Of a stretch of 64,000 bases of DNA, positions 5,979-16,234 are shown in pieces. The stretch's first letter is position 1. Every line of letters begins with the position of its first letter. Under the pieces are notes generated by a model. That model worked only from the letters and a program-made list of their open reading frames with translations, ran no database searches and was not told the origin of the DNA. The position numbers and the translations under genes were made by a program. Location of the stretch: NCBI GenBank assembly GCA_963776425.1, contig CAVZMG010000002.1, forward strand, positions 609,650-673,649, in the 5' to 3' direction. The DNA comes from an uncultured Actinomycetes bacterium (GTDB lineage Bacteria; Actinomycetota; UBA4738; HRBIN12).

Positions 5979-7337
5979 TCAGGTCGCCGGGGCGTCGGCC
6001 GAGGCGGGTCCCTCCGCGGTCACCCAGCGGATCCCCAGTTGGTAGAGCACGAGCACGGCGCCGACCAGGATGACCGAGAGCCAGGAGACCCCGACGAAGA
6101 AGAGCAGGACGACCGCGACGATCAGCCCGGTCGTCCGCAGGACGTCGGCGTGCTCGCGGATCCAGAGGGCGTACGGTCGGTCCGACGCGGCCATGTCCTT
6201 GCCCGTTCCGTAGGCGCGTGCCGCCTGCGACCGAGCCGCGCTGAGCCACTCGCGCTTGCCGATCAGGAACGCGATCAGAGCGACGATCAGTGCGATCGCG
6301 AACAGCCATCGCGTGAAGCCTCGCAGGCTCCCGAACGCATCGTCCAGGACGGCCCTCACCGCCGGTCTGTTCGACGATGCGATCGACGTCACGACGTCGC
6401 TCGAGATCTTCTTGATGATCAGACGAGCGATCAAGACGCCCACGATCGTTCCGATCGCGAGTTGCACGGCGGTTCGCCGCCTGTTCACCGAGAGCACGAT
6501 CGTGACCGCGATCAGCAGGAGGGAGAAGAGGATCAGGGCATAGGTGAGCGTGTCGAAGAGCTTGACCGCGCTCTGCGCCGAGGCGAGCTGATCCGACTGG
6601 AAGATCACGACCTGGCCGAAGTCCGGCGGCAGGGGTCGTCCCAGGGCGGACGAGAGCGCCGAGATCGCCTGGCTGACCTGCTCGGTGCCGGTGATCTGGG
6701 GCAGCGTGACCCGGTCGCCCAGGAGTCCCTGCGCGACGGATTCGATCTTCTGGAGCACGGTGGTGATGACGGGCAGGAGGTTCAGGGTGACTTCGCCGTT
6801 CGCCACGGTGAGCACGGTCCCCTGATGGCCCCGGAGGATGTTCACGGCCTGCTCGTGGGCGACCCGGTTCGCTTCTAGCCAGAACGTCTCCCACGCCGGC
6901 GAGTTGAAGAACTCCACCATCTTGTCGTGGACGAATCCCTGGATCGCGTTCGTGATCGGTCCTGCGAGGAACGCTGCCTGCGGCGCGGCCTGCGTGAGCG
7001 CGTCCTGTGCCCGCTGTTGCAGGTCGAGCTGCGTCACGATCTGATCCGTGACGTAGTTGGCGAGCGCGGCCGTCACCTGTGGGTTGGTTCCGAGCGGCGC
7101 AACGGTGTCGACCCACGCGTTCGTGTTCAGGAGCGTCCGGTGGGCCCAGGTGTCGATCGTGGTGACGGTGATCGACAAAGACGTGAGCACGACCAAGATG
7201 CCCACCAGGATCTTCCGCAGGTTGAGCCGTTTCGCGCGCTTCTCGCCTTCGAACTTCTCGAGCTTGTGGTGCAGCTCCTCGTTCTCGGCGACGACCTGCG
7301 CCGGATCCAGGGTTCCTCCCGTGGGCACGTCGCTCAT
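5979..7337 (-). CDS. hypothetical membrane protein with N-terminal coiled-coil
   Basis: ATG at 7335-7337 is preceded by GGAGGAG. The long ORF to 7493 has an arginine-rich, implausible N-extension. Contains several TM segments. Confidence 0.5.
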   Translation of the reverse strand: MSDVPTGGTLDPAQVVAENEELHHKLEKFEGEKRAKRLNLRKILVGILVVLTSLSITVTTIDTWAHRTLLNTNAWVDTVAPLGTNPQVTAALANYVTDQIVTQLDLQQRAQDALTQAAPQAAFLAGPITNAIQGFVHDKMVEFFNSPAWETFWLEANRVAHEQAVNILRGHQGTVLTVANGEVTLNLLPVITTVLQKIESVAQGLLGDRVTLPQITGTEQVSQAISALSSALGRPLPPDFGQVVIFQSDQLASAQSAVKLFDTLTYALILFSLLLIAVTIVLSVNRRRTAVQLAIGTIVGVLIARLIIKKISSDVVTSIASSNRPAVRAVLDDAFGSLRGFTRWLFAIALIVALIAFLIGKREWLSAARSQAARAYGTGKDMAASDRPYALWIREHADVLRTTGLIVAVVLLFFVGVSWLSVILVGAVLVLYQLGIRWVTAEGPASADAPAT

Positions 7338-7371
7338 GACTCCTCCGTTCGAATCGCTTATGCGGCCCGGG

Positions 7372-8121
7372 TCATGCGTTCCCCCGGATCCGGACCAGCA
7401 GGTACAGGATCTCCAGGTACAGCCAGACGAGCGTGGTCTGCAGTCCGAAGGCGGCGTACCACTCGAACGCCGCCGGCGCGCCTGACGATACACCGGTCTC
7501 CACCACGGCGAAGTCCGCGATCAGACTCATCGCGGCCACGATGCTGATCACCACACTGATCGCGATGCCCGTGGTCGAACCGTTGTAGAGGAAGTTCAGG
7601 CGCACGCCGAAGATGCTCACGAACCACCCGAAGAGGTACAGCAACATGATCCCGAAGATCGCCGTCATCAGGATCCTCACGAACTTGCCCGTGACGCGCA
7701 CGACCCTCAGCGAGTAGAGGAGCAGACAGGCGATGAACACGCAGACCGTCGTGAGGAGGGCCTGTCCGACGATGCCTTGGTAGTAGGTCTCGTAGATCCG
7801 GGAGATCGCTCCCATCCACGTCCCCATCAGCGCCGCGTAGACGATGCCGGCGACGGCGGCGATGCGCGGATTCCCCACCGCCGCGAACGTCAGCGCGATC
7901 AGCAGGATGTAGCCCAGGAAGAACCACATCCCCGACGTGGTCGCGACCTGAGCGGCCCACTGCCAGCCGATAGCGGCGAAGCCGAGGGTGATGACGATGA
8001 GGAAGAGCGAGCGCACGATCGTCCCGCCGTAGGTCATCGCGCGCGTAACGGGTTGGCCACCCGTCAACTGCTGCGTGTGTGCGGGGGAGAACGTCTGCTC
8101 GTTCAATACCTGCCTCGACAC
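7372..8121 (-). CDS. Bax inhibitor-1 / YccA family membrane protein
   Basis: 249 aa, 7-TM pattern typical of TMBIM/BI-1 proteins. Confidence 0.7.
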   Translation of the reverse strand: MSRQVLNEQTFSPAHTQQLTGGQPVTRAMTYGGTIVRSLFLIVITLGFAAIGWQWAAQVATTSGMWFFLGYILLIALTFAAVGNPRIAAVAGIVYAALMGTWMGAISRIYETYYQGIVGQALLTTVCVFIACLLLYSLRVVRVTGKFVRILMTAIFGIMLLYLFGWFVSIFGVRLNFLYNGSTTGIAISVVISIVAAMSLIADFAVVETGVSSGAPAAFEWYAAFGLQTTLVWLYLEILYLLVRIRGNA

Positions 8122-8738: not shown

Positions 8739-9773
8739 ATGGGTTGGTACCCGGCCGTCGGTCGCCCGCTGTTCTTCGCTCTCCCGCCCGAGACAGCCCA
8801 TCGCCTCGCCGGCACGCTGCTAGGACTCCCGCTGCCGTGGCGACGGATCGGTCACGCCGCCGACGATGTCCGGCTGGAGGCCGAGCTCGCAGGCATCTCG
8901 CTCCGCAACCCGATCGGCCTTGCTGCTGGGTTCGACAAGACCTGCGCGCATCTCGACGCCTTGGGTGCCCTCGGGTTCGGGTACGTGGTCGGCGGCACCA
9001 TCACCCGGGCGCCTCGGTCCGGGAACCCGAAGCCCAGGATCGTCCGCTACCCGGCGAAGGGCTCGATGACCAACGCGATGGGGCTGCCGAACCCCGGCGC
9101 CGACCGCGCCGAGCAGATCCTCGCCGCGTCATCTCGCCGCACGGCTCCGCGCGTGATCAGCATCGCGGACGAGGCGCTCGACGACGCGCTCGTCGCGGTC
9201 GAACGGCTCGCGCCGCATGCCGACGCGATCGAGCTGAACGCGAGCTGCCCGAACGTCTCTTGGGGTCGGGACCGAGACAACGAGTCACATCTGCGGGACC
9301 TGGTCGGTGGTATCCGGGAACGCACCGGCGTGCCGCTCTTCGTGAAGCTCCCGCCGTTCGCGACCGCGGTGGAGCGGGACGTGATCCTCGCGCTCGCGGC
9401 GATCGCGCAGGGGGCGGGGGCTGAGGGCCTCACGTGCTCCAACACGCGGTTGGTCGGGGATCGAGGTCTCTCGGTCGGGGCCGGCGGGTTGTCGGGTCGC
9501 GCGTTGTGGGACCGGACGCCCTCGATCGTGGCCGACGTCCGGGCCGCGACGGGGGGCGCCATGGCGATCAACGCTTGCGGCGGGATCTCGACCTGGGAAG
9601 ACGTGCTGGCGTGCCTGGAGGTCGGGGCCACGACCGTGCAGCTCTACTCCGCGCTGATCTACGAGGGGCCGGGCTTGGTGGGCACACTCACCCGCGGGCT
9701 GGCTCGGGCGCTCGGGGAGCGCGGCACCTCGGTGCGCGCGCTCGCGGGAGCGGCCGAGCCAGCTGCAGGGTGA
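8739..9773 (+). CDS. pyrD: dihydroorotate dehydrogenase (quinone), class 2
   Basis: NPIGLAAGFDK and GGTITRAPRSGNPKPRIVR motifs; divergent from pyrE. Confidence 0.8.
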   Translation: MGWYPAVGRPLFFALPPETAHRLAGTLLGLPLPWRRIGHAADDVRLEAELAGISLRNPIGLAAGFDKTCAHLDALGALGFGYVVGGTITRAPRSGNPKPRIVRYPAKGSMTNAMGLPNPGADRAEQILAASSRRTAPRVISIADEALDDALVAVERLAPHADAIELNASCPNVSWGRDRDNESHLRDLVGGIRERTGVPLFVKLPPFATAVERDVILALAAIAQGAGAEGLTCSNTRLVGDRGLSVGAGGLSGRALWDRTPSIVADVRAATGGAMAINACGGISTWEDVLACLEVGATTVQLYSALIYEGPGLVGTLTRGLARALGERGTSVRALAGAAEPAAG

Positions 9774-9795
9774 AGGATCGTGCGCCGGCGAGACG

Positions 9796-10176
9796 TTAGA
9801 TCTGCATCATCGCCTTGTTCTTCATGTCCTCGTACTGCTCGGCGGTGATGTCGCCGGAATCGCGGAGCTTCGCGAGCTTCGCGACCTCATCGGCCGGCGA
9901 GTAGCCCTGGACCCGGCGCTGCGCCTCCGCTGCCTGCTCCATCATCTGCTTGTCCTGCTCCGTCATCTTCGGGCGAGCGATGATGTAGATCAGCGCACCC
10001 AAGAACGGCACGATGAAGATCAGGATGATCCAGAACGCCTTCATCCCACCGTGGATGTCGTTCCTCCGGAAGATGTCGGCGAAGATCGTGATGAAGATCC
10101 AGATCGCCATGAACCAGAAGAAGAAGACGAGCATCGCCCACATCACGCTGCCCAGGTTCCATTCCGTTGCCAGCAT
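9796..10176 (-). CDS. small membrane protein with PLD-nuclease N-terminal (PLDc_N) TM domain and C-terminal SHOCT domain
   Basis: Two TM helices followed by AKLAKLRDSGDITAEQYEDMKNKAM (SHOCT-like). GC is visibly lower than in the neighbouring genes. Confidence 0.55.
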   Translation of the reverse strand: MLATEWNLGSVMWAMLVFFFWFMAIWIFITIFADIFRRNDIHGGMKAFWIILIFIVPFLGALIYIIARPKMTEQDKQMMEQAAEAQRRVQGYSPADEVAKLAKLRDSGDITAEQYEDMKNKAMMQI

Positions 10177-10277
10177 GCATGCCCCTTTCAGCTGAACCTG
10201 CGGGACGTCCCGCTCGGGTCCCCCTCGGTGACCCGGGGCGCAACGCTAGCAGGATGTGGCCCCCAGCGTAACCCGGG

Positions 10278-11939
10278 TTGGCGTGGTCGCCTGTTGCCGG
10301 GGATGATGCCGCGATGATGAGCGTTCGCCCACCTTCCCGGCTGCGCCGAAGGCCCTCTGGGGAGCCGCCGCCTCTTCCTCGTGAACAGGGATGGATCAGA
10401 TGGGCGTGGGCCGTGGCAGGCGTCGTGCTGCTGGGGATCGTGGTGGCGTCGATCTTCGCCACCACCCAGGGATGGTCGCTGGACGATGACATCCTGCAGT
10501 GGTTCGCCGACCATCGCAGCACCCAGATCGTGGATCTCGCGAAGGCCGTGGTCGCGCCCGCAGATCTTTCGACCGTCCTGTTCGTGCGGATCGCCGTGGT
10601 GGTGGTCCTCGTCTCGTTCAAACGGTTCCGGCAACTCGTGGCGTTCCTGGCGACGTTCGTGGCGGTGGATTGGCTCGTGGTTCGCGCGCTGTCCGTACCG
10701 CTGACACCGCCGGACGTGACACCGGTCGTCGCGCCGGGTCCATGGGTGTTCCCTTCGAGACCCATCTCGACGATCGCGATCACGCTCATCCTGGCGGCGT
10801 ACGTGTTGGTTCCCCGCGGAGCCGCCCGACGGAACGTCCTGATCGTGATGAACGCGGTGATCGCGGTCGAGGTGCTGTCGCAACTGGTCCTGGCCACCGA
10901 CGTGCCGTCCGCGATGCTCTACTCATGGCTGCTCGCCGCCGTGGTCCCACCGCTCGTCTTCCGCTGGTTCGTCCCGGAGGAGGTGTTCCCCGTCAGCTAC
11001 TCGCGGGGTGGCAACGCCGCGCACCTCGATCTGGGGGGCGAGCGGCAGGTGGCCGTGACGGGCGCGATGGCCGATCAGTTGGGCTTGGAGGTGACGAAGG
11101 TTGAGCCGTTCGGGCTAGAGGGATCCGGTGGCTCGTCGCCACTGCGGATGACGCTCGCCGACGGATCGCGGGTGTTCGGGAAGATCTACTCGACGTCGCA
11201 CGTGCGGGCGGATCGTTGGTACCGCATCGGCCGGACGATCATGTACGGACAGCTCGAGGATGAGACGCCGATCGGATCGGTCCGGCGCCTGACGATCATC
11301 GAGGATCATGCGCTGCGGTTCCTCCGCGACGCCGGCATCCGCGTCGCGACGACCCGCGGGATCGTGGAGCTCACGCCCAACCAGGAGTACATGCTCGTCA
11401 CGGAGTTCTTCGAGGGGTCGAAGAACCTGGGCGACTCCGAGATCGACGATGTCGCGATCGACGAAGGGCTGGAGCTCGTGCGCACGCTGTGGGACGTCGG
11501 TGCCGCCCATCGGGACGTGAAGCCCGCGAACATGCTCATCAAGGACGGTCATCTCCAGTTGGTGGATGTATCGGGGCTCGAGATCCGCCCGTCGTCATGG
11601 CGACAGGCCGTGGATCTCGCCAACATGATGCTCACCCTGGCGCTGCGGACCGATGCCGATCGGGTCTACGCGCGAGCTACGGCCTTCTTCTCGCCCGACG
11701 AGATCGCCGAGGCGTTCGCCTCCGACGTCGGCCTGGCCGTGCCTACCGAGCTCTCCGCGAAGCTCAAGGCCGACGGCCGGCCCCTGCGCGAGCGCTTCAT
11801 CGAGCTCGCGCCGGCGCGCGATCCGATCTCGATCCAGCGGTGGAGCGGCCGCCGGCTCGCGCTCACGGCGGCGGCGGCGCTCAGTGTGTTCGTGCTGGCG
11901 GGGCTGTCCGTGGATGCCTTGCGCGCCGGCATCACCTGA
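10278..11939 (+). CDS. membrane-anchored protein with C-terminal atypical protein-kinase-like domain
   Basis: N-terminal ~200 aa contain 5-6 TM helices. The C-terminal domain has a Hanks-type catalytic loop HRDVKPANMLI and a D-V-S in place of DFG. The start could instead be ATG at about 10314. Confidence 0.5.
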   Translation: MAWSPVAGDDAAMMSVRPPSRLRRRPSGEPPPLPREQGWIRWAWAVAGVVLLGIVVASIFATTQGWSLDDDILQWFADHRSTQIVDLAKAVVAPADLSTVLFVRIAVVVVLVSFKRFRQLVAFLATFVAVDWLVVRALSVPLTPPDVTPVVAPGPWVFPSRPISTIAITLILAAYVLVPRGAARRNVLIVMNAVIAVEVLSQLVLATDVPSAMLYSWLLAAVVPPLVFRWFVPEEVFPVSYSRGGNAAHLDLGGERQVAVTGAMADQLGLEVTKVEPFGLEGSGGSSPLRMTLADGSRVFGKIYSTSHVRADRWYRIGRTIMYGQLEDETPIGSVRRLTIIEDHALRFLRDAGIRVATTRGIVELTPNQEYMLVTEFFEGSKNLGDSEIDDVAIDEGLELVRTLWDVGAAHRDVKPANMLIKDGHLQLVDVSGLEIRPSSWRQAVDLANMMLTLALRTDADRVYARATAFFSPDEIAEAFASDVGLAVPTELSAKLKADGRPLRERFIELAPARDPISIQRWSGRRLALTAAAALSVFVLAGLSVDALRAGIT

Positions 11940-12026
11940 AGACGCCTGCGAGGAGCTCGTGTTGCCGCCGGATACTTTCCCGTTCAGTATGTTTCGCATC
12001 CCAACGAGGTATCTGAGGGGGGCCGT

Positions 12027-13145
12027 TTGGCGGAAGCTGCCGTGCGTATGACCGATGCTGGTTCGATCGACCAACGTGTCGCGGTCCGGCTCGAGGGCGT
12101 CGTCAAGAGGTTCGGCGACACGACGGCCGTCGACGGCGTCGATCTGGACGTGTTCGAGGGGGAGTTCTTCTCGATGCTCGGCCCCTCAGGGTCGGGGAAG
12201 ACCACGTGCCTGCGGATGATCGCCGGCTTCGAGTCGCCGACATCAGGAGGGATCATGCTCGGCGGCCAGGATGTGTCGAAGCTGGCGCCGTACGAGCGCG
12301 ACGTGAACACGGTCTTCCAGGATTACGCGCTGTTCCCGCACATGAGCGTCGAGGAGAACGTGGAGTACGGGCTCCGGGTGAAGAAGGTCTCCAAGGCCGA
12401 GCGCCGGGATCGCGTTCGTGAAGCGCTCGCGATGGTGCAGCTCACGGAGTTCGGCGGTCGGAAGCCTGCGCAGCTCTCCGGTGGCCAGCGTCAGCGGGTC
12501 GCGCTCGCCCGTGCGTTGGTGAACCGACCGAAGGTGCTGCTGTTGGACGAACCGCTCGGGGCGCTCGACCTGAAGCTCCGCCAGGCGATGCAGATCGAGC
12601 TGAAGGAGATCCAGCAGGAGGTCGGCCTCACGTTCATCTACGTGACGCACGATCAGGAGGAAGCGCTCACCATGAGCGACCGTCTCGCCGTGTTCAACCA
12701 CGGGAAGGTCGAGCAGATCGGCAGCCCGGCCGAGGTGTATGAGCGTCCCGCAACCGGGTTCGTCGCGGGCTTCGTCGGGATATCGAACGTGCTCGAAGGC
12801 CCGGCCGCCGAGCGGATCGCCGGCGACGCGCGAGCGTTCACGATCCGCCCGGAGAAGATCTCGATGGGCGAGGCGGACGTCGAACCAGAGCCTGGCATGT
12901 GCACGGCAACGGGTCACGTCCGGGAGGTCGTCTACCTGGGTGCGGTGACGCGCTACGTCGTATCGCTCGATGTGGGTGGAGAGCTGGTCGTGATGCAGCA
13001 GAACCTCGCCACCTCGTCGATGGAAGCGCTCCAAGTGAAGGGGAAGCCGGTCCGGCTCACGTGGGATCGGAGGAACAACCGGCCCGTCGAACGGGCGGAG
13101 GGGGCCCTTGAGGGGTCTTTGGATCAGGAGGAGGGGCACGGATGA
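12027..13145 (+). CDS. potA: spermidine/putrescine ABC transporter ATP-binding protein (copy 1)
   Basis: Walker [25 protein letters not shown], and a C-terminal TOBE-like domain. TTG start is preceded by GAGGGGGG. Confidence 0.8.
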
Positions 13146-14410
13146 AGAGGGTCATGAGAGGCTTGGCGGCAGTCGGCGCGCTCGCGCTGATCGCCGCCGC
13201 ATGTTCGAACGGCAGCAGTAGCAGCAACGGTGGTGCGAGCGGTGGCGGTGCAACGCCCACGATCGTTCCAGCGAAGACCTACAGCACGATCGGGCAACCT
13301 GAGGGCGCGCTCAACCTGATCGCGTGGAACGGCTATACGGAGGATGGCTCGAACGACCCCAACTACGACTGGGTCACGCCGTTCGAGCAGGAGACGGGTT
13401 GCAAGGTGACGGTGAAGTACGCGGACACCTCCGACGAGATGGTGACCCTCATGCGGCAGGGTGGCGGCTCTATCTACGACGGCGTCTCGGCCTCCGGCAA
13501 CGCCACGAACCGCCTGATCGCGGGCCACGATGTCGCCGCGATCGACCCGTCGCTGTTCCCGGCGCTCTCCGACGTGATCGCGCCCCTCAACCCCACGACC
13601 GGCGACAAGACGAGCCACTACGTGGTGGATGGGGCCGTGTACGGGGTTCCGTACATGTACGGCCCGAACTTCCTGATGTACAACACGAAGGTCGTCAAGC
13701 CGGCGCCGACGAGCTGGGATGTCACGTTCGAGCCGCAGCTGAACGGCGCGGCCAACCCGTACTCGGGCAAGCTGACGGCATACAACGACCCGATCTACAT
13801 CGCCGATGCCGCCGTCTACCTGAAAGCGCACGACCCGAGCCTCGGGATCACCGACCCCTACGAGTTGACCGCGGCGCAATTGGATGCCGCCGTCAACCTG
13901 CTCAAGGGCCAGAAGCCGATGCTCTCGAAGTACTGGGCGCTCTACACGGACGAGATCGATGGATTCGTGAACGGCTCGATGGTTGCCGGAACCGCGTGGC
14001 CGATCAACCTCAGCCTCGCCGAGGCGGACGCACCCGTCGCGGCCGTCATCCCATCGGAGGGCGTCACGGGGTGGGCCGATACGTGGATGATCTCGACCCA
14101 CGCCCCACATCCGAACTGCATGCTGAAGTGGATGGACTACACGCTCCGTCCCGACGTGCAATCGCAGGTGGCGATCTGGTACGGAGCGGCCGGAAGCAAC
14201 ACGAAGTCTTGCGCGCTCATCAAGAAGTCCCTCGGCAAGGACGCCGACCTGGTGGATACGGTGCGCTACAGCTTCTGCGGCGACGCGCAGTTCCTCGAGT
14301 CGATCTACCTCTGGAAGACGCCACAGGTGAACTGCGGCGACGACCGAGGAGCGACGTGCGAGGACTACTCCGTGTGGCAGCAGAAGTGGACCGACATCAC
14401 GGGCGCGTAG
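13142..14410 (+). CDS. potD: polyamine ABC transporter substrate-binding lipoprotein (copy 1)
   Basis: Signal peptide plus lipobox LIAAAC; paralogous to the 45693-46964 gene. Confidence 0.7.
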
Positions 14411-14471
14411 CGTCACGAGCCCCGGGAGCGATCGTGGCTCCCGGGGCTCGTCCTCGCTCGGTGGGAGGACC

Positions 14472-15378
14472 ATGGCTACGGTGAGGCCGGATCAGGTTGA
14501 AGGGACCGCGGTGCACCGGACGTCCGCGTTCTTCTTCCGTCATCCGCGGTTGAAGCTCGGCGTCCTGTTGGGCGCCGCCGCTGGCGTGGTTCCTCGTCAT
14601 CTACCTCGGGGCGCTGGTCGTGTTGTTCTTCTCGGCGTTCTGGCACCTCGATGCGTTCAGCGGGCTGATCGTGAAGCAGTCCGCTCTCGCTCGTGAACTT
14701 CCAGAACGCTTGCTAACGACCCGGTGTATCGGACGATCGTCATCCGAACGCTCGGGATCTCGTTCGGGGTCATGATCACCGATGTCGTCTTGTCGTTCCC
14801 GCTCGCGTACTACGCGGCGCGTCTCGCGACCCCCAGGAGGCGCAACGTGATCCTGGTCCTCGTCGTGATCCCCCTCTGGGCCAACTACGTGGTCCGCGTG
14901 TTCGCTTGGAAGCTGATCCTCACCCCTCAGGGATTCCTCAACTGGCTGGTGCACTTCTCCGGCGCTCACCTGCAGATCGGGAACTCGAATTGGGCGATCT
15001 GGCTGACGTTCGTCTACCTGTGGCTCCCCTTCACGATGCTGCCGATCTTCGGTGCGCTCGAGCGCGTCCCGCCCTCGTTCCTCGAGGCCTCCAACGATCT
15101 CGGGGCGAAGGGGTGGAAGACGTTCCGGAGCGTCGTGTTCCCGCTGATCGTTCCCGGGATCGTCGCCGGCTCGATCTTCGCGTTCTCCCTCACGCTCGGG
15201 GACTACATCACGCCGCAGCTCGTCGGGAACACCCTGTTCATCGGCAACGTGATCTACGACGAGCGTCGGGGTCGCCAACAACGTGCCGTTCGCGGCGGCA
15301 TTCGCGTTGGTCCCGGTGGCGATCATGGCGGTCTACCTCTTGATCGCGAAGCAGCTGGGCGCGTTCGAGGCGCTCTAG
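14472..15378 (+). pseudogene. potB: polyamine ABC permease PotB-like, interrupted by about 4 frameshifts (or sequence errors)
   Basis: PotB-like sequence, co-linear with the intact paralog at 46996-47919, runs through frames 0->1->2->0 between 14570 and 14720. It then shifts again near 15262, so the C-terminal SVGVANNVPFAAAFALVPVAIMAVYLLIAKQLGAFEAL ends at a TAG about 15376. Confidence 0.6.
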
Positions 15379-15386
15379 GAGGACGG

Positions 15387-16234
15387 GTGGAGTCGAGGAT
15401 CGCGCGCGTGCTCATCAAGACGGGATCCGTGCTGACCATGCTCTTCCTCTACATCCCGCTCGCGATCGTCGTGGTGTACGCCTTCAACAACAGCATCGGG
15501 CAGAAGTGGCCGATCCAGAGTCTTCACGTCGCGGTGGTTCGGGGTGGCCTGGCACAACCCCGACGTCCGGACGGCTCTCGGCAACTCCGTGAAGGTCGCG
15601 ACCGTGGCGACGATCTTCGCGTTGCTGCTGGGGAGCGCCGGTCGCGTTCGCCGTTCATCGATACCGGTTCTTCGGGCGCAACGCCGTGTCGTTCCTGCTG
15701 GTGATGCCGATCGCACTTCCCGGGATCGTCACCGCGATCGCATTGAACTCTGCCATCAACAACTACAAGATCCCGTTCAGCCTCTGGACGATCATGATCG
15801 GGCACACGACGTTCTGCATCGTGGTCGTCTTCAACAACGTGGTGGCACGACTTCGAAGAACCCCAGGTTCGCTCGTCGAAGCCTCGGCGGATCTCGGCGC
15901 GGACGGGTGGCAGACCTTCCGCTACGTGACGTTCCCGGCCATCAGGACGGCGATCATCGCCGGGGCGCTGCTCGCCTTCGCGCTGTCGTTCGACGAGATC
16001 GTCGTCACGAACTTCACCTCTGGCACCCAACTCACGCTTCCGAAGTTCATCTACAACAACATCCGACAACCTCGGAACCGGCCGGTCGTGAACGTCGTGG
16101 CGCTCGTCGTCGTGCTTGCGATGGTGATCCCGGTGTACATCGCTCAGCGGCTCGCCGGCGCTGGACAGGCGGTCGGAGCCGCGAGCAGCGATGTCGCCAC
16201 GCCGGTGGAGGCGCTCGAGGAGGCGATGCCCTAG
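15387..16234 (+). pseudogene. potC: polyamine ABC permease PotC-like, interrupted by 2 frameshifts (or sequence errors)
   Basis: PotC N-terminus in the frame of 15387, middle part in the frame of the 15544 ORF, C-terminus in the frame of the 15686 ORF. Co-linear with the intact paralog at 47916-48821. Confidence 0.6.

Follow-up and report, generated by a model that had tools for sequence, protein, structure and literature searches.

Membrane phosphatases of the PAP2 family (PF01569), such as Bacillus subtilis PgpB/YodM, Escherichia coli PgpB, and LpxE, are recognized by three motifs, C1 (KX6RP), C2 (PSGH), and C3 (SRX5HX3D), which supply a catalytic Lys (C1), the phosphate-binding Arg of C1 and C3, a general-acid His (C2), and a nucleophilic His (C3). 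In eukaryotes, the PLPPR proteins (the products of plasticity-related genes) retain the PAP2 fold, have lost the catalytic residues, and take on non-enzymatic or signaling roles. Among kinases, the RIO proteins and Bud32/PRPK are soluble, ribosome- or KEOPS-associated, and built on a compact protein-kinase-like (PKL) domain with an insertion between strand beta3 and helix C and no real activation loop; the RIO signature motifs are an STGKEA P-loop, HxDLSxxN, and IDxxQ, and RIO kinases also lack the Phe-Gly of the DFG motif. The Ser/Thr-protein-kinase form of the catalytic loop, HRDxK, is found in Hanks-type receptor kinases such as Mycobacterium tuberculosis PknB, in which a soluble N-terminal kinase domain is anchored to the membrane. 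What activates the Ser/Thr kinases of bacteria is still largely unknown. The GlnH-GlnX-PknG module of Corynebacteriales consists of a binding protein, a membrane protein, and a kinase (PMC6069109, PMC9769921), and in M. tuberculosis an MviN/MurJ-pseudokinase is paired with PknB (ActPs3 family; PMC12599244). Here we describe a gene from a stretch of 64,000 nucleotides (hereafter the window, the whole of which was analyzed) on contig CAVZMG010000002.1 of an uncultured Actinomycetes bacterium, whose product is predicted to join a degenerate PAP2 domain to a compact kinase domain. Our reading of the whole, to which we give an even chance, is that of a protein with seven transmembrane (TM) helices in which a competent, atypical Ser/Thr kinase is controlled by a dead PAP2 domain.

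The N-terminal half of this protein had been called polytopic in a preliminary description of the DNA, with five to six TM helices and no motif that could be placed. Hydropathy and an AlphaFold2 model (from a 47-sequence alignment; mean predicted local distance difference test score, pLDDT, 88.6; predicted template modeling score, pTM, 0.81) bear out the polytopic character and place six TM helices before the kinase, over residues 38-230 (residue numbers count from the TTG at 10278; 12 is subtracted for numbering from the ATG at 10314), while vestigial PAP2 motifs, a PAP2 fold, and a seventh TM helix after the kinase had gone unseen. Because the loops carry 6, 2, 3, 0, 3, and 0 Lys plus Arg residues, the N-terminus and the kinase are predicted to be cytoplasmic. 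The window protein has the six-TM PAP2 core fold, and a profile of the family aligned to B. subtilis PgpB/YodM over the whole domain (E = 1.8e-14). The Pfam PAP2 model itself gave no match to the window protein at E <= 1 (gathering score 27.2 bits); among its relatives, P0125 (32.6 bits), P0133 (29.5 bits), and P0213 (29.0 bits) exceed the gathering score, and 14 of 47 family members match at E <= 1e-3.

The predicted topology and the remnants of C1 (..P), C2 (FPS..), and C3 (S....D...) are what the domain shares with the PAP2 phosphatases; it differs from them in the fused kinase and in the family-wide replacement of the C1 Lys and of the C2 and C3 His. When the PAP2 residues were compared in 120 close homologues, in 150 sequences that represent clusters, and in the 94 copies found at 81 loci and in the window, these three residues were kept by no full-length member, the one exception at C2 being a partial paralogue of a third type (L034_12696), which has SFH. 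The canonical position of the C3 His is occupied by Asp or Glu in most family sequences. Distant relatives retain the C1 Arg, C3 Arg, and C3 Asp, often with a His one position later, and the A-type members of the family (see below) retain the C1 Arg, C2 Ser, C3 Arg, and C3 Asp, plus the His at +1. Of these residues, the C1 Arg, C3 Arg, C3 Asp, and +1 His are all gone from the clade that the window protein forms with its closest orthologues, L001 and L002. The residues that are invariant in the B-type clade to which the window protein belongs (R104, D131, W132, F158-P159-S160, and D208) map, in the model, to the outer ends of TM2, TM3, and TM4 and to the TM5-TM6 loop, the expected place of a PAP2 active site. 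The membrane domain is, as judged from these replacements, a catalytically dead PAP2 fold, and its vestigial pocket is predicted to face the outside of the cell, with the kinase on the inside. The preliminary description had allowed for a full-length alignment to a well-characterized family with a standard PAP2 or MurJ membrane domain; the fold does turn out to be that of PAP2, but the domain appears to be dead and the family is uncharacterized. A MurJ/MviN-type pseudokinase identity was rejected, given the PAP2-like fold and the intact catalytic motifs of the kinase.

In the kinase half, the Hanks-type core residues are all present on the expected secondary-structure elements, and K302, E342, H411, R412, D413, K415, N418, and D430 are each more than 95% conserved among about 270 homologues. 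G282, S283, G285, and S286 of the Gly-rich loop show no variation, or almost none. Between beta3 and helix C lies an insertion, beginning TSHVRADRWYRIGRTIMYGQLEDE, that ranks among the most conserved stretches of the protein; H308, R310, D312, R313, W314, Y315, R316, R319, Y323, G324, Q325, L326, E327, D328, E329, and T330 are invariant among close homologues, and many of them are kept in distant homologues too. The activation segment after DVS comprises only about nine residues (GLEIRPSSW), followed by a helix at 440-456, and a full DFG...APE segment with a P+1 loop was not found in the window protein. Pfam Pkinase (PF00069) scored 19.1 bits against a cut-off of 31.7 (E = 9.4e-4), over residues 384-430 only.

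A compact fold of the RIO type, without an activation loop, is what the model shows, and the nearest kinase structures are those of RIO kinases (RIOK3, Rio1, and Rio2), Bud32, and APH. The RIO signature motifs were not found in the window protein, which has GSGGSS, HRDVKPAN, and VDVSG, nor did it match Pfam RIO1 (PF01163); some relatives (P0128, 27.7 bits; P0137, 28.2 bits) lie above the RIO1 cut-off of 22. The NCBIfam scores were 18.9 against a cut-off of 246 for Bud32 and 15.3 against 480 for Rio1, with RfaY likewise far under its cut-off. Of the 47 family members, 39 match Pkinase at E <= 1e-3, 13 RIO1, 11 Kdo, and 11 APH, and some A-type members exceed the Pfam Kdo/WaaP (PF06293) cut-off (27.1 vs. 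21.3 bits). The domain therefore resembles RIO kinases and Bud32/PRPK in its compact PKL architecture, in its insertion between beta3 and helix C, and in the automated names of its relatives, but not in its membrane location, and the curated NCBIfam cut-offs are missed by an order of magnitude; the JGI label 'Bud32' of some relatives is a COG-level name only. With PknB-type kinases it has in common HRDxKxxN, the beta3 Lys, the helix-C Glu, and membrane anchoring (in A-type relatives also an extracytoplasmic C-terminal domain after a TM helix), whereas it has DVS for DFG and no activation segment or APE, and follows a six-TM domain rather than being soluble and N-terminal. Taken together, the features describe an atypical kinase domain that resembles RIO kinases and Bud32 in size and in shape and whose catalytic loop, HRDxKxxN, is Hanks-like; the domain is apparently catalytically competent. 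The preliminary description had correctly read a canonical Ser/Thr kinase catalytic loop (residues 409-421) and D-V-S in place of DFG (residues 430-432), and its view that this is not a standard Pkn kinase agrees with the low Pkinase score, the near absence of an activation segment, and the nearest structures. Its further claims, that the Gly-rich loop is missing, that DVS is a sign of degeneration, and that the domain may be a pseudokinase, find no support: GLEGSGGSSP lies on the beta1-beta2 hairpin, the metal-binding D430 is kept in a motif that lacks Phe-Gly in RIO kinases as well, and the catalytic residues are all present and more than 95% conserved.

Directly before TM1, the homologues carry an almost invariant cytoplasmic RRP[S/T]GExPPLP (residues 24-34), in which R24, R25, P26, and G28 never vary, nearly every sequence has Ser or Thr at position 27, and P32, L33, and P34 change hardly at all, whether the homologues are close or distant. 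The stretch is a candidate phospho-acceptor or docking motif; model confidence is low here (pLDDT 57-74), which fits a short linear motif. At the other end of the protein, only four residues follow TM7, and in A-type relatives the last TM helix continues into an extracytoplasmic, Cys-containing domain of about 160 amino acids.

The 78 genome loci retrieved for this family are all contigs of metagenome-assembled genomes, mostly labeled Actinomycetota, Acidimicrobiia, Ilumatobacteraceae, or Microthrixaceae, and their neighboring genes were counted by targeted tblastn searches. Two paralogue classes can be distinguished. B-type proteins are 53-82% identical to the window protein, are about 541 amino acids long, and end straight after the last TM helix; A-type proteins are 42-49% identical to it. 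By sequence, the window copy belongs to the B-type, the shorter and more degenerate class, and it has neither the extracytoplasmic domain of the A-type nor the partners that the A-type has in its operon. The A-type operon has the order OpuAC-like binding protein, kinase, Cys domain, and true PAP2 and/or ABC1/UbiB kinase. The binding-protein gene (129.5 bits in Pfam) lies 5' of the A-type kinase in 55 of 81 loci, and the Cys-containing domain, which has no Pfam match, lies 3' of it in 61 of 81, either fused (proteins of about 715 amino acids) or as a separate lipoprotein gene that overlaps the kinase stop codon. The true PAP2 genes of these operons have intact His motifs, and an MprF-flippase-like (LPG_synthase_TM) gene is close by in 50 loci. 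An example of an A-type operon is found in L063 (4959-8911), with three intact PAP2 genes inside 6 kb. A-type and B-type genes stand about 4 kb apart in 11 loci, and about half of the loci have a separate true PAP2 gene no more than a few kb away, in one of several arrangements; in L079, a PAP2 gene overlaps the kinase start.

A third paralogue, present in 13 loci, combines a weak pseudo-PAP2 region with a kinase-like HR[A/G/S]LRAxN domain and a C-terminal LPG_synthase_TM domain; its kinase-like domain has lost the catalytic Asp and Lys and is a pseudokinase. L066 provides an example (10083-12521, + strand; LPG_synthase_TM, 115 bits in Pfam), and the same type was seen in L034, L052, L054, L059, L062, L064, L065, L067, and L070-L073. 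Several long relatives carry N-terminal fusions, found on independent contigs: an intact PAP2 domain (P0142), a response-regulator REC domain with a LuxR helix-turn-helix (HTH) domain (P0137 and P0145, from a nine-member cluster on separate contigs), or a STAND NTPase with TPR repeats (P0125, P0129, and P0213). Relatives of the window protein are thus linked, family-wide, to active PAP2 proteins, lipid-handling membrane proteins, and signaling domains.

These architectures have partial counterparts among described systems. Like the GlnH-GlnX-PknG module, A-type loci co-encode a Ser/Thr kinase with a solute-binding protein and a polytopic membrane protein, which suggests that an extracytoplasmic signal is passed by way of a membrane domain to a kinase; here, however, a single polypeptide contains both the membrane domain and the kinase, the former derives from PAP2, the binding protein is of the OpuAC type, and the window copy has no binding-protein gene. 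The M. tuberculosis MviN-pseudokinase likewise joins a polytopic lipid-handling domain to a kinase-like domain in Actinomycetota, and its true analogue in this family is the third paralogue with its MprF-flippase-like domain. The likeness to PLPPR proteins is conceptual only; the lineages are unrelated, and PLPPR proteins have no fused kinase.

If a dead PAP2 domain does control a competent kinase, the kinase domain would be held on the membrane's cytoplasmic side between the six-TM pseudo-PAP2 domain and the C-terminal TM helix. The PAP2-derived domain could control the kinase either as a non-hydrolyzing module that binds lipid or senses the state of the membrane, or as a scaffold, and we infer that signaling runs in this direction. 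The output would probably be protein phosphorylation, and candidate substrates include the protein's own N-terminal RRP[S/T]G motif, the pseudokinase-flippase paralogues, fused or neighboring regulators, and partner membrane proteins. In keeping with this, the polar pocket at the outer-leaflet face is conserved despite the loss of the PAP2 Lys and two His, the HRDxKxxN loop, Gly-rich loop, and other kinase residues are conserved (>95%), and the family includes the REC-LuxR and STAND-TPR fusions, the A-type operon with its binding protein, the pseudokinase-flippase paralogues, and true PAP2 proteins nearby or fused (P0142). Three observations weigh against it. The clade of the window, L001, and L002 has lost the phosphate-binding Arg of C1 and C3, so that lipid phosphate binding is less supported for the window copy than for the A-type; the neighboring genes in the window (pyrE, pyrD, and an ABC transporter) give no functional hint; and the 64-kb window contains no second paralogue, true PAP2, OpuAC, ABC1, flippase-like, or C-terminal-domain-like (CTD-like) gene at E <= 1e-4. 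A more specific proposal, which we offer tentatively and regard as doubtful, is that the dead PAP2 domain binds a phosphorylated carrier or membrane lipid (e.g., polyprenyl (pyro)phosphate) in the outer leaflet, leaves it unhydrolyzed, and signals its level to the RIO-like kinase; together with the true PAP2 proteins, pseudokinase-flippase fusions, binding protein, and lipoprotein, it might then form an undescribed phospho-signaling system of Acidimicrobiia, acting in envelope lipid recycling or flipping. Were the dead PAP2 domain such a sensor, it would offer a testable model for the sensing of lipid intermediates by phospho-signaling, and a bacterial case of a pseudo-phosphatase as a receptor.

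Several alternatives would assign the two halves other roles. The PKL domain could be a lipid (or other small-molecule) kinase that phosphorylates polyprenol, polyprenyl phosphate, diacylglycerol, or a glycolipid head group held by the PAP2-derived domain, as the kinase arm of a cycle with true PAP2 proteins. The lipid-phosphate-binding nature of the PAP2 fold, the true PAP2 genes near about half of the loci (and fused in P0142), the ABC1/UbiB and MprF-flippase-like genes in the same clusters, the missing activation loop, and the Kdo/WaaP and APH matches of family members are all consistent with such an activity. We nevertheless consider it unlikely: the HRDxKxxN loop has the Ser/Thr-protein-kinase form, with a Lys that to our knowledge is absent from APH, choline, and Kdo kinases; the PAP2 pocket would open to the outer leaflet, whereas the kinase and its ATP are cytoplasmic; and the REC-LuxR and STAND-TPR fusions, like the invariant Ser/Thr of the N-terminal motif, suit signaling more than metabolism. 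An ATPase switch as in RIO/Bud32, where ATP hydrolysis (with transient autophosphorylation) would drive a conformational cycle that regulates a PAP2 or flippase-like partner, seems decidedly improbable, since STGKEA is replaced by GSGGSS and HxDLSxxN by HRDVKPAN, and the window protein has no Pfam RIO1 match and falls far below the NCBIfam cut-offs for Bud32 and Rio1. It is the solved structures nearest to the domain (RIOK3, Rio1, Rio2, and Bud32), the absence of an activation segment, the NCBI name 'RIO1 family regulatory kinase/ATPase' given to relatives, and the relatives above the Pfam RIO1 cut-off that argue for such a switch.

The PAP2-like domain might also still act as a phosphatase or phosphotransferase, with either the invariant Asp208 or the Asp-His pair of the A-type as a non-canonical nucleophile, and the protein would then be a bifunctional enzyme. 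The near-constant Asp or Glu at the C3 His position is not random, and A-type members retain the C1 Arg, C2 Ser, C3 Arg, C3 Asp, and +1 His; yet the C1 Lys and the general-acid C2 His do not occur at all, both Arg, the +1 His, and the C3 Asp are gone as well from the window clade, and intact PAP2 genes are kept beside many family members, a sensible arrangement if the fused copy has lost that job. We regard this possibility as very slight. Almost no weight can be given to an inert kinase domain: all catalytic residues and the Gly-rich loop are present and conserved, and the genuine pseudokinase paralogues in related loci, whose existence might be cited in its favor along with the sub-threshold Pkinase score and DVS for DFG, degenerate to HRALRAAN and are unlike the window protein. 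Our preferred reading is thus that of a seven-TM protein with an active atypical Ser/Thr kinase under a dead PAP2 domain.

What is new here is the membrane module, of a type not described before in a membrane Ser/Thr kinase; within its uncharacterized family, the window copy is nothing out of the ordinary. A lipid-phosphate-binding enzyme fold appears to have been stripped of its chemistry and joined to a kinase that seems to be active; thousands of proteins share this design, and conserved operons encode it together with an active phosphatase. Database names such as 'phosphatase PAP2 family protein,' 'Bud32,' and 'RIO1 family regulatory kinase/ATPase' cover half of the protein or the wrong activity; relatives are also labeled 'Bud32/membrane-associated phospholipid phosphatase,' and because of these labels the combination of PAP2 and kinase is visible to annotation pipelines. 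In the literature, we found no paper that describes the fusion or that combines PAP2, RIO1, and bacteria, and the fusion is not mentioned in the Lipocone paper, in a review of bacterial pseudokinases, or in a review of phosphosignaling. A 2026 preprint on a PIK-like kinase that neighbors PAP2 in Segetibacter proved unrelated.

The gene was delineated as an open reading frame (ORF) of 553 codons (10278-11939, + strand), for which the TTG at 10278 is the longest-ORF start. Its GC content at third codon positions (GC3) is 0.865, similar to that of neighboring genes, and more than 7,400 among 8,000 scored candidates are homologues at E <= 1e-3; the 120 best listed are mostly full length (540-565 amino acids). 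A search of 1.84 billion cluster representatives yielded 1,331 matches at E <= 1e-3, of which 329 at E <= 1e-30. By GC3 and by the number of homologues, this ORF is a real gene; an exact-sequence look-up of the window protein returned no record. The true start is probably the ATG at 10314 rather than the TTG, because in the alignment it coincides with the starts (GTG and ATG) of the closest orthologues, L001 and L002, and because the upstream GGGGATGATGCC is conserved. Upstream of the equivalent starts, GG(G)GATGATGCC is common to all three genes, and homologues of 542 amino acids begin at the same point of the alignment. The coordinates of the predicted features are given in Table 1.

Table 1. 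Features of the predicted pseudo-PAP2/kinase protein and of the divergent gene beside it (positions in the window; residues numbered from the TTG at 10278).
Feature	Position	Strand	Basis or remarks
Pseudo-PAP2/kinase fusion coding sequence (541 amino acids, probable start)	10314..11939	+	ORF, orthologue starts, GC3, homologues
Candidate cytoplasmic linear motif RRRPSGEPPPLP, residues 23-34, right before TM1	10344..10379	+	Conservation
Six-TM pseudo-PAP2 domain (predicted), residues 38-232	10389..10973	+	PAP2 fold, catalytic residues replaced
PAP2 motif C1 vestige, KX6RP to LSVPLTPP (Lys to L138, Arg to P144, P145 kept)	10689..10712	+	Profile alignment to B. subtilis PgpB; family column counts
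PAP2 motif C2 vestige, F-PSGH to FPSRP (P159 and S160 kept, Gly to R161, His to P162)	10749..10763	+	Profile alignment, column counts
PAP2 motif C3 vestige, SRX5HX3D to SQLVLATDVPSA (S201 kept, Arg to Q202, nucleophile His to invariant D208, Asp to A212)	10878..10913	+	Profile alignment, column counts
Cytoplasmic protein-kinase-like domain (predicted), compact, RIO/Bud32-sized, about residues 255-520	11040..11837	+	
Gly-rich (P-loop-like) hairpin GLEGSGGSSP, residues 279-288	11112..11141	+	Between strands 272-277 and 287-293 (beta1-beta2, model)
Lys302, putative beta3 ATP-anchoring Lys in VFGK, strand 298-305	11181..11183	+	Lys in 120/120 close and 115/121 distant homologues
Family-signature insertion, beta3 to helix C, TSHVRADRWYRIGRTIMYGQLEDETPIGS, residues 306-334	11193..11279	+	Helix 306-323 in model
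Glu342, helix-C Glu, predicted salt bridge with Lys302	11301..11303	+	Helix 335-351; invariant in alignments
Catalytic loop AAHRDVKPANMLI, residues 409-421 (H411, R412, D413, K415, N418)	11502..11540	+	Read from sequence
Putative metal-binding D430-V-S (DFG equivalent), residues 430-432	11565..11573	+	D430 is Asp in 120/120 close and 121/125 distant homologues
Seventh TM helix (predicted), C-terminal, residues 524-549	11847..11924	+	Hydropathy, model helix
PLDc_N + SHOCT small membrane protein, divergent	9796..10176	-	Pfam SHOCT 28.2 bits, PLDc_N 27.0 bits

The neighbors of the gene in the window are pyrE, pyrD, the SHOCT gene, and a PotA-like ABC transporter operon. The preliminary description had identified the PLDc_N/SHOCT neighbor and its low GC content correctly (58.5% vs. 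67.8% for the window), but had taken it to be convergent; with the SHOCT gene upstream and on the minus strand, the pair is divergent. A foreign origin of the SHOCT gene is ruled out by its GC3 of 0.93; the GC content at second codon positions (GC2) is 0.33, and the low overall value results from the amino-acid composition. The divergent pair also occurs in the more distant L014 and L020, and L021, L079, and L080 have a SHOCT gene no more than a few kb away; this gene is a loosely recurrent neighbor and not a fixed partner. The arrangement of pyrE, pyrD, and the ABC transporter, including the adjacency of the transporter to the kinase gene, is kept in L001 and L002 only, and in both of these the SHOCT gene is absent between pyrD and the kinase gene. 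Because synteny is restricted to these two loci and the SHOCT gene is missing there, no function was inferred from the neighbors, and a functional link to them was dropped.

The ABC transporter operon (12027-16234, + strand) starts 87 nt 3' of the kinase gene and encodes a PotA-like ATPase (ABC_tran + TOBE_2), an SBP_bac_8 binding protein, and two permease ORFs. No terminator-like site was seen between the kinase gene and this operon, and a promoter and terminator scan of 9600-12300 returned nothing useful.

Other surroundings recur among the related loci. In about 20 of them (e.g., L025, L011, L003, and L077), the family gene lies in the region of infB, a gene for a DHH-family phosphoesterase (NrnA-like), and truB, with rpsO and pnp near in some; this placement is probably inherited synteny and not a functional link. 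In L081 (5044-11349), the homologue P0130 adjoins a gene with a guanylate-cyclase domain and a block, perhaps a mobile element, that contains Prim-Pol/DUF3987 and a resolvase. Genes for Transgly_assoc, BrkB-like, and DUF7144 proteins recur near B-type genes. In L079 and L080 (the flanks of P0043 and P0052), B-type genes are set amid genes for small stress-type membrane proteins, of the PLDc_N/SHOCT (two in L079), DUF7144, Transgly_assoc, BrkB-like, and ion-channel kinds, and L079 has a gene for a MalT-like LuxR regulator as well. The window itself encodes, at 5979-7493 on the minus strand, a membrane protein of 504 amino acids with no Pfam domain, and a Pfam-less membrane protein of about 460-500 amino acids recurs within a few kb of B-type genes in L001, L014, L079, and L080, where it is directly downstream on the same strand. 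The listed start of the window ORF is probably too far upstream, because the ORF overlaps a BaxI-like gene (7372-8121) by 122 nt.

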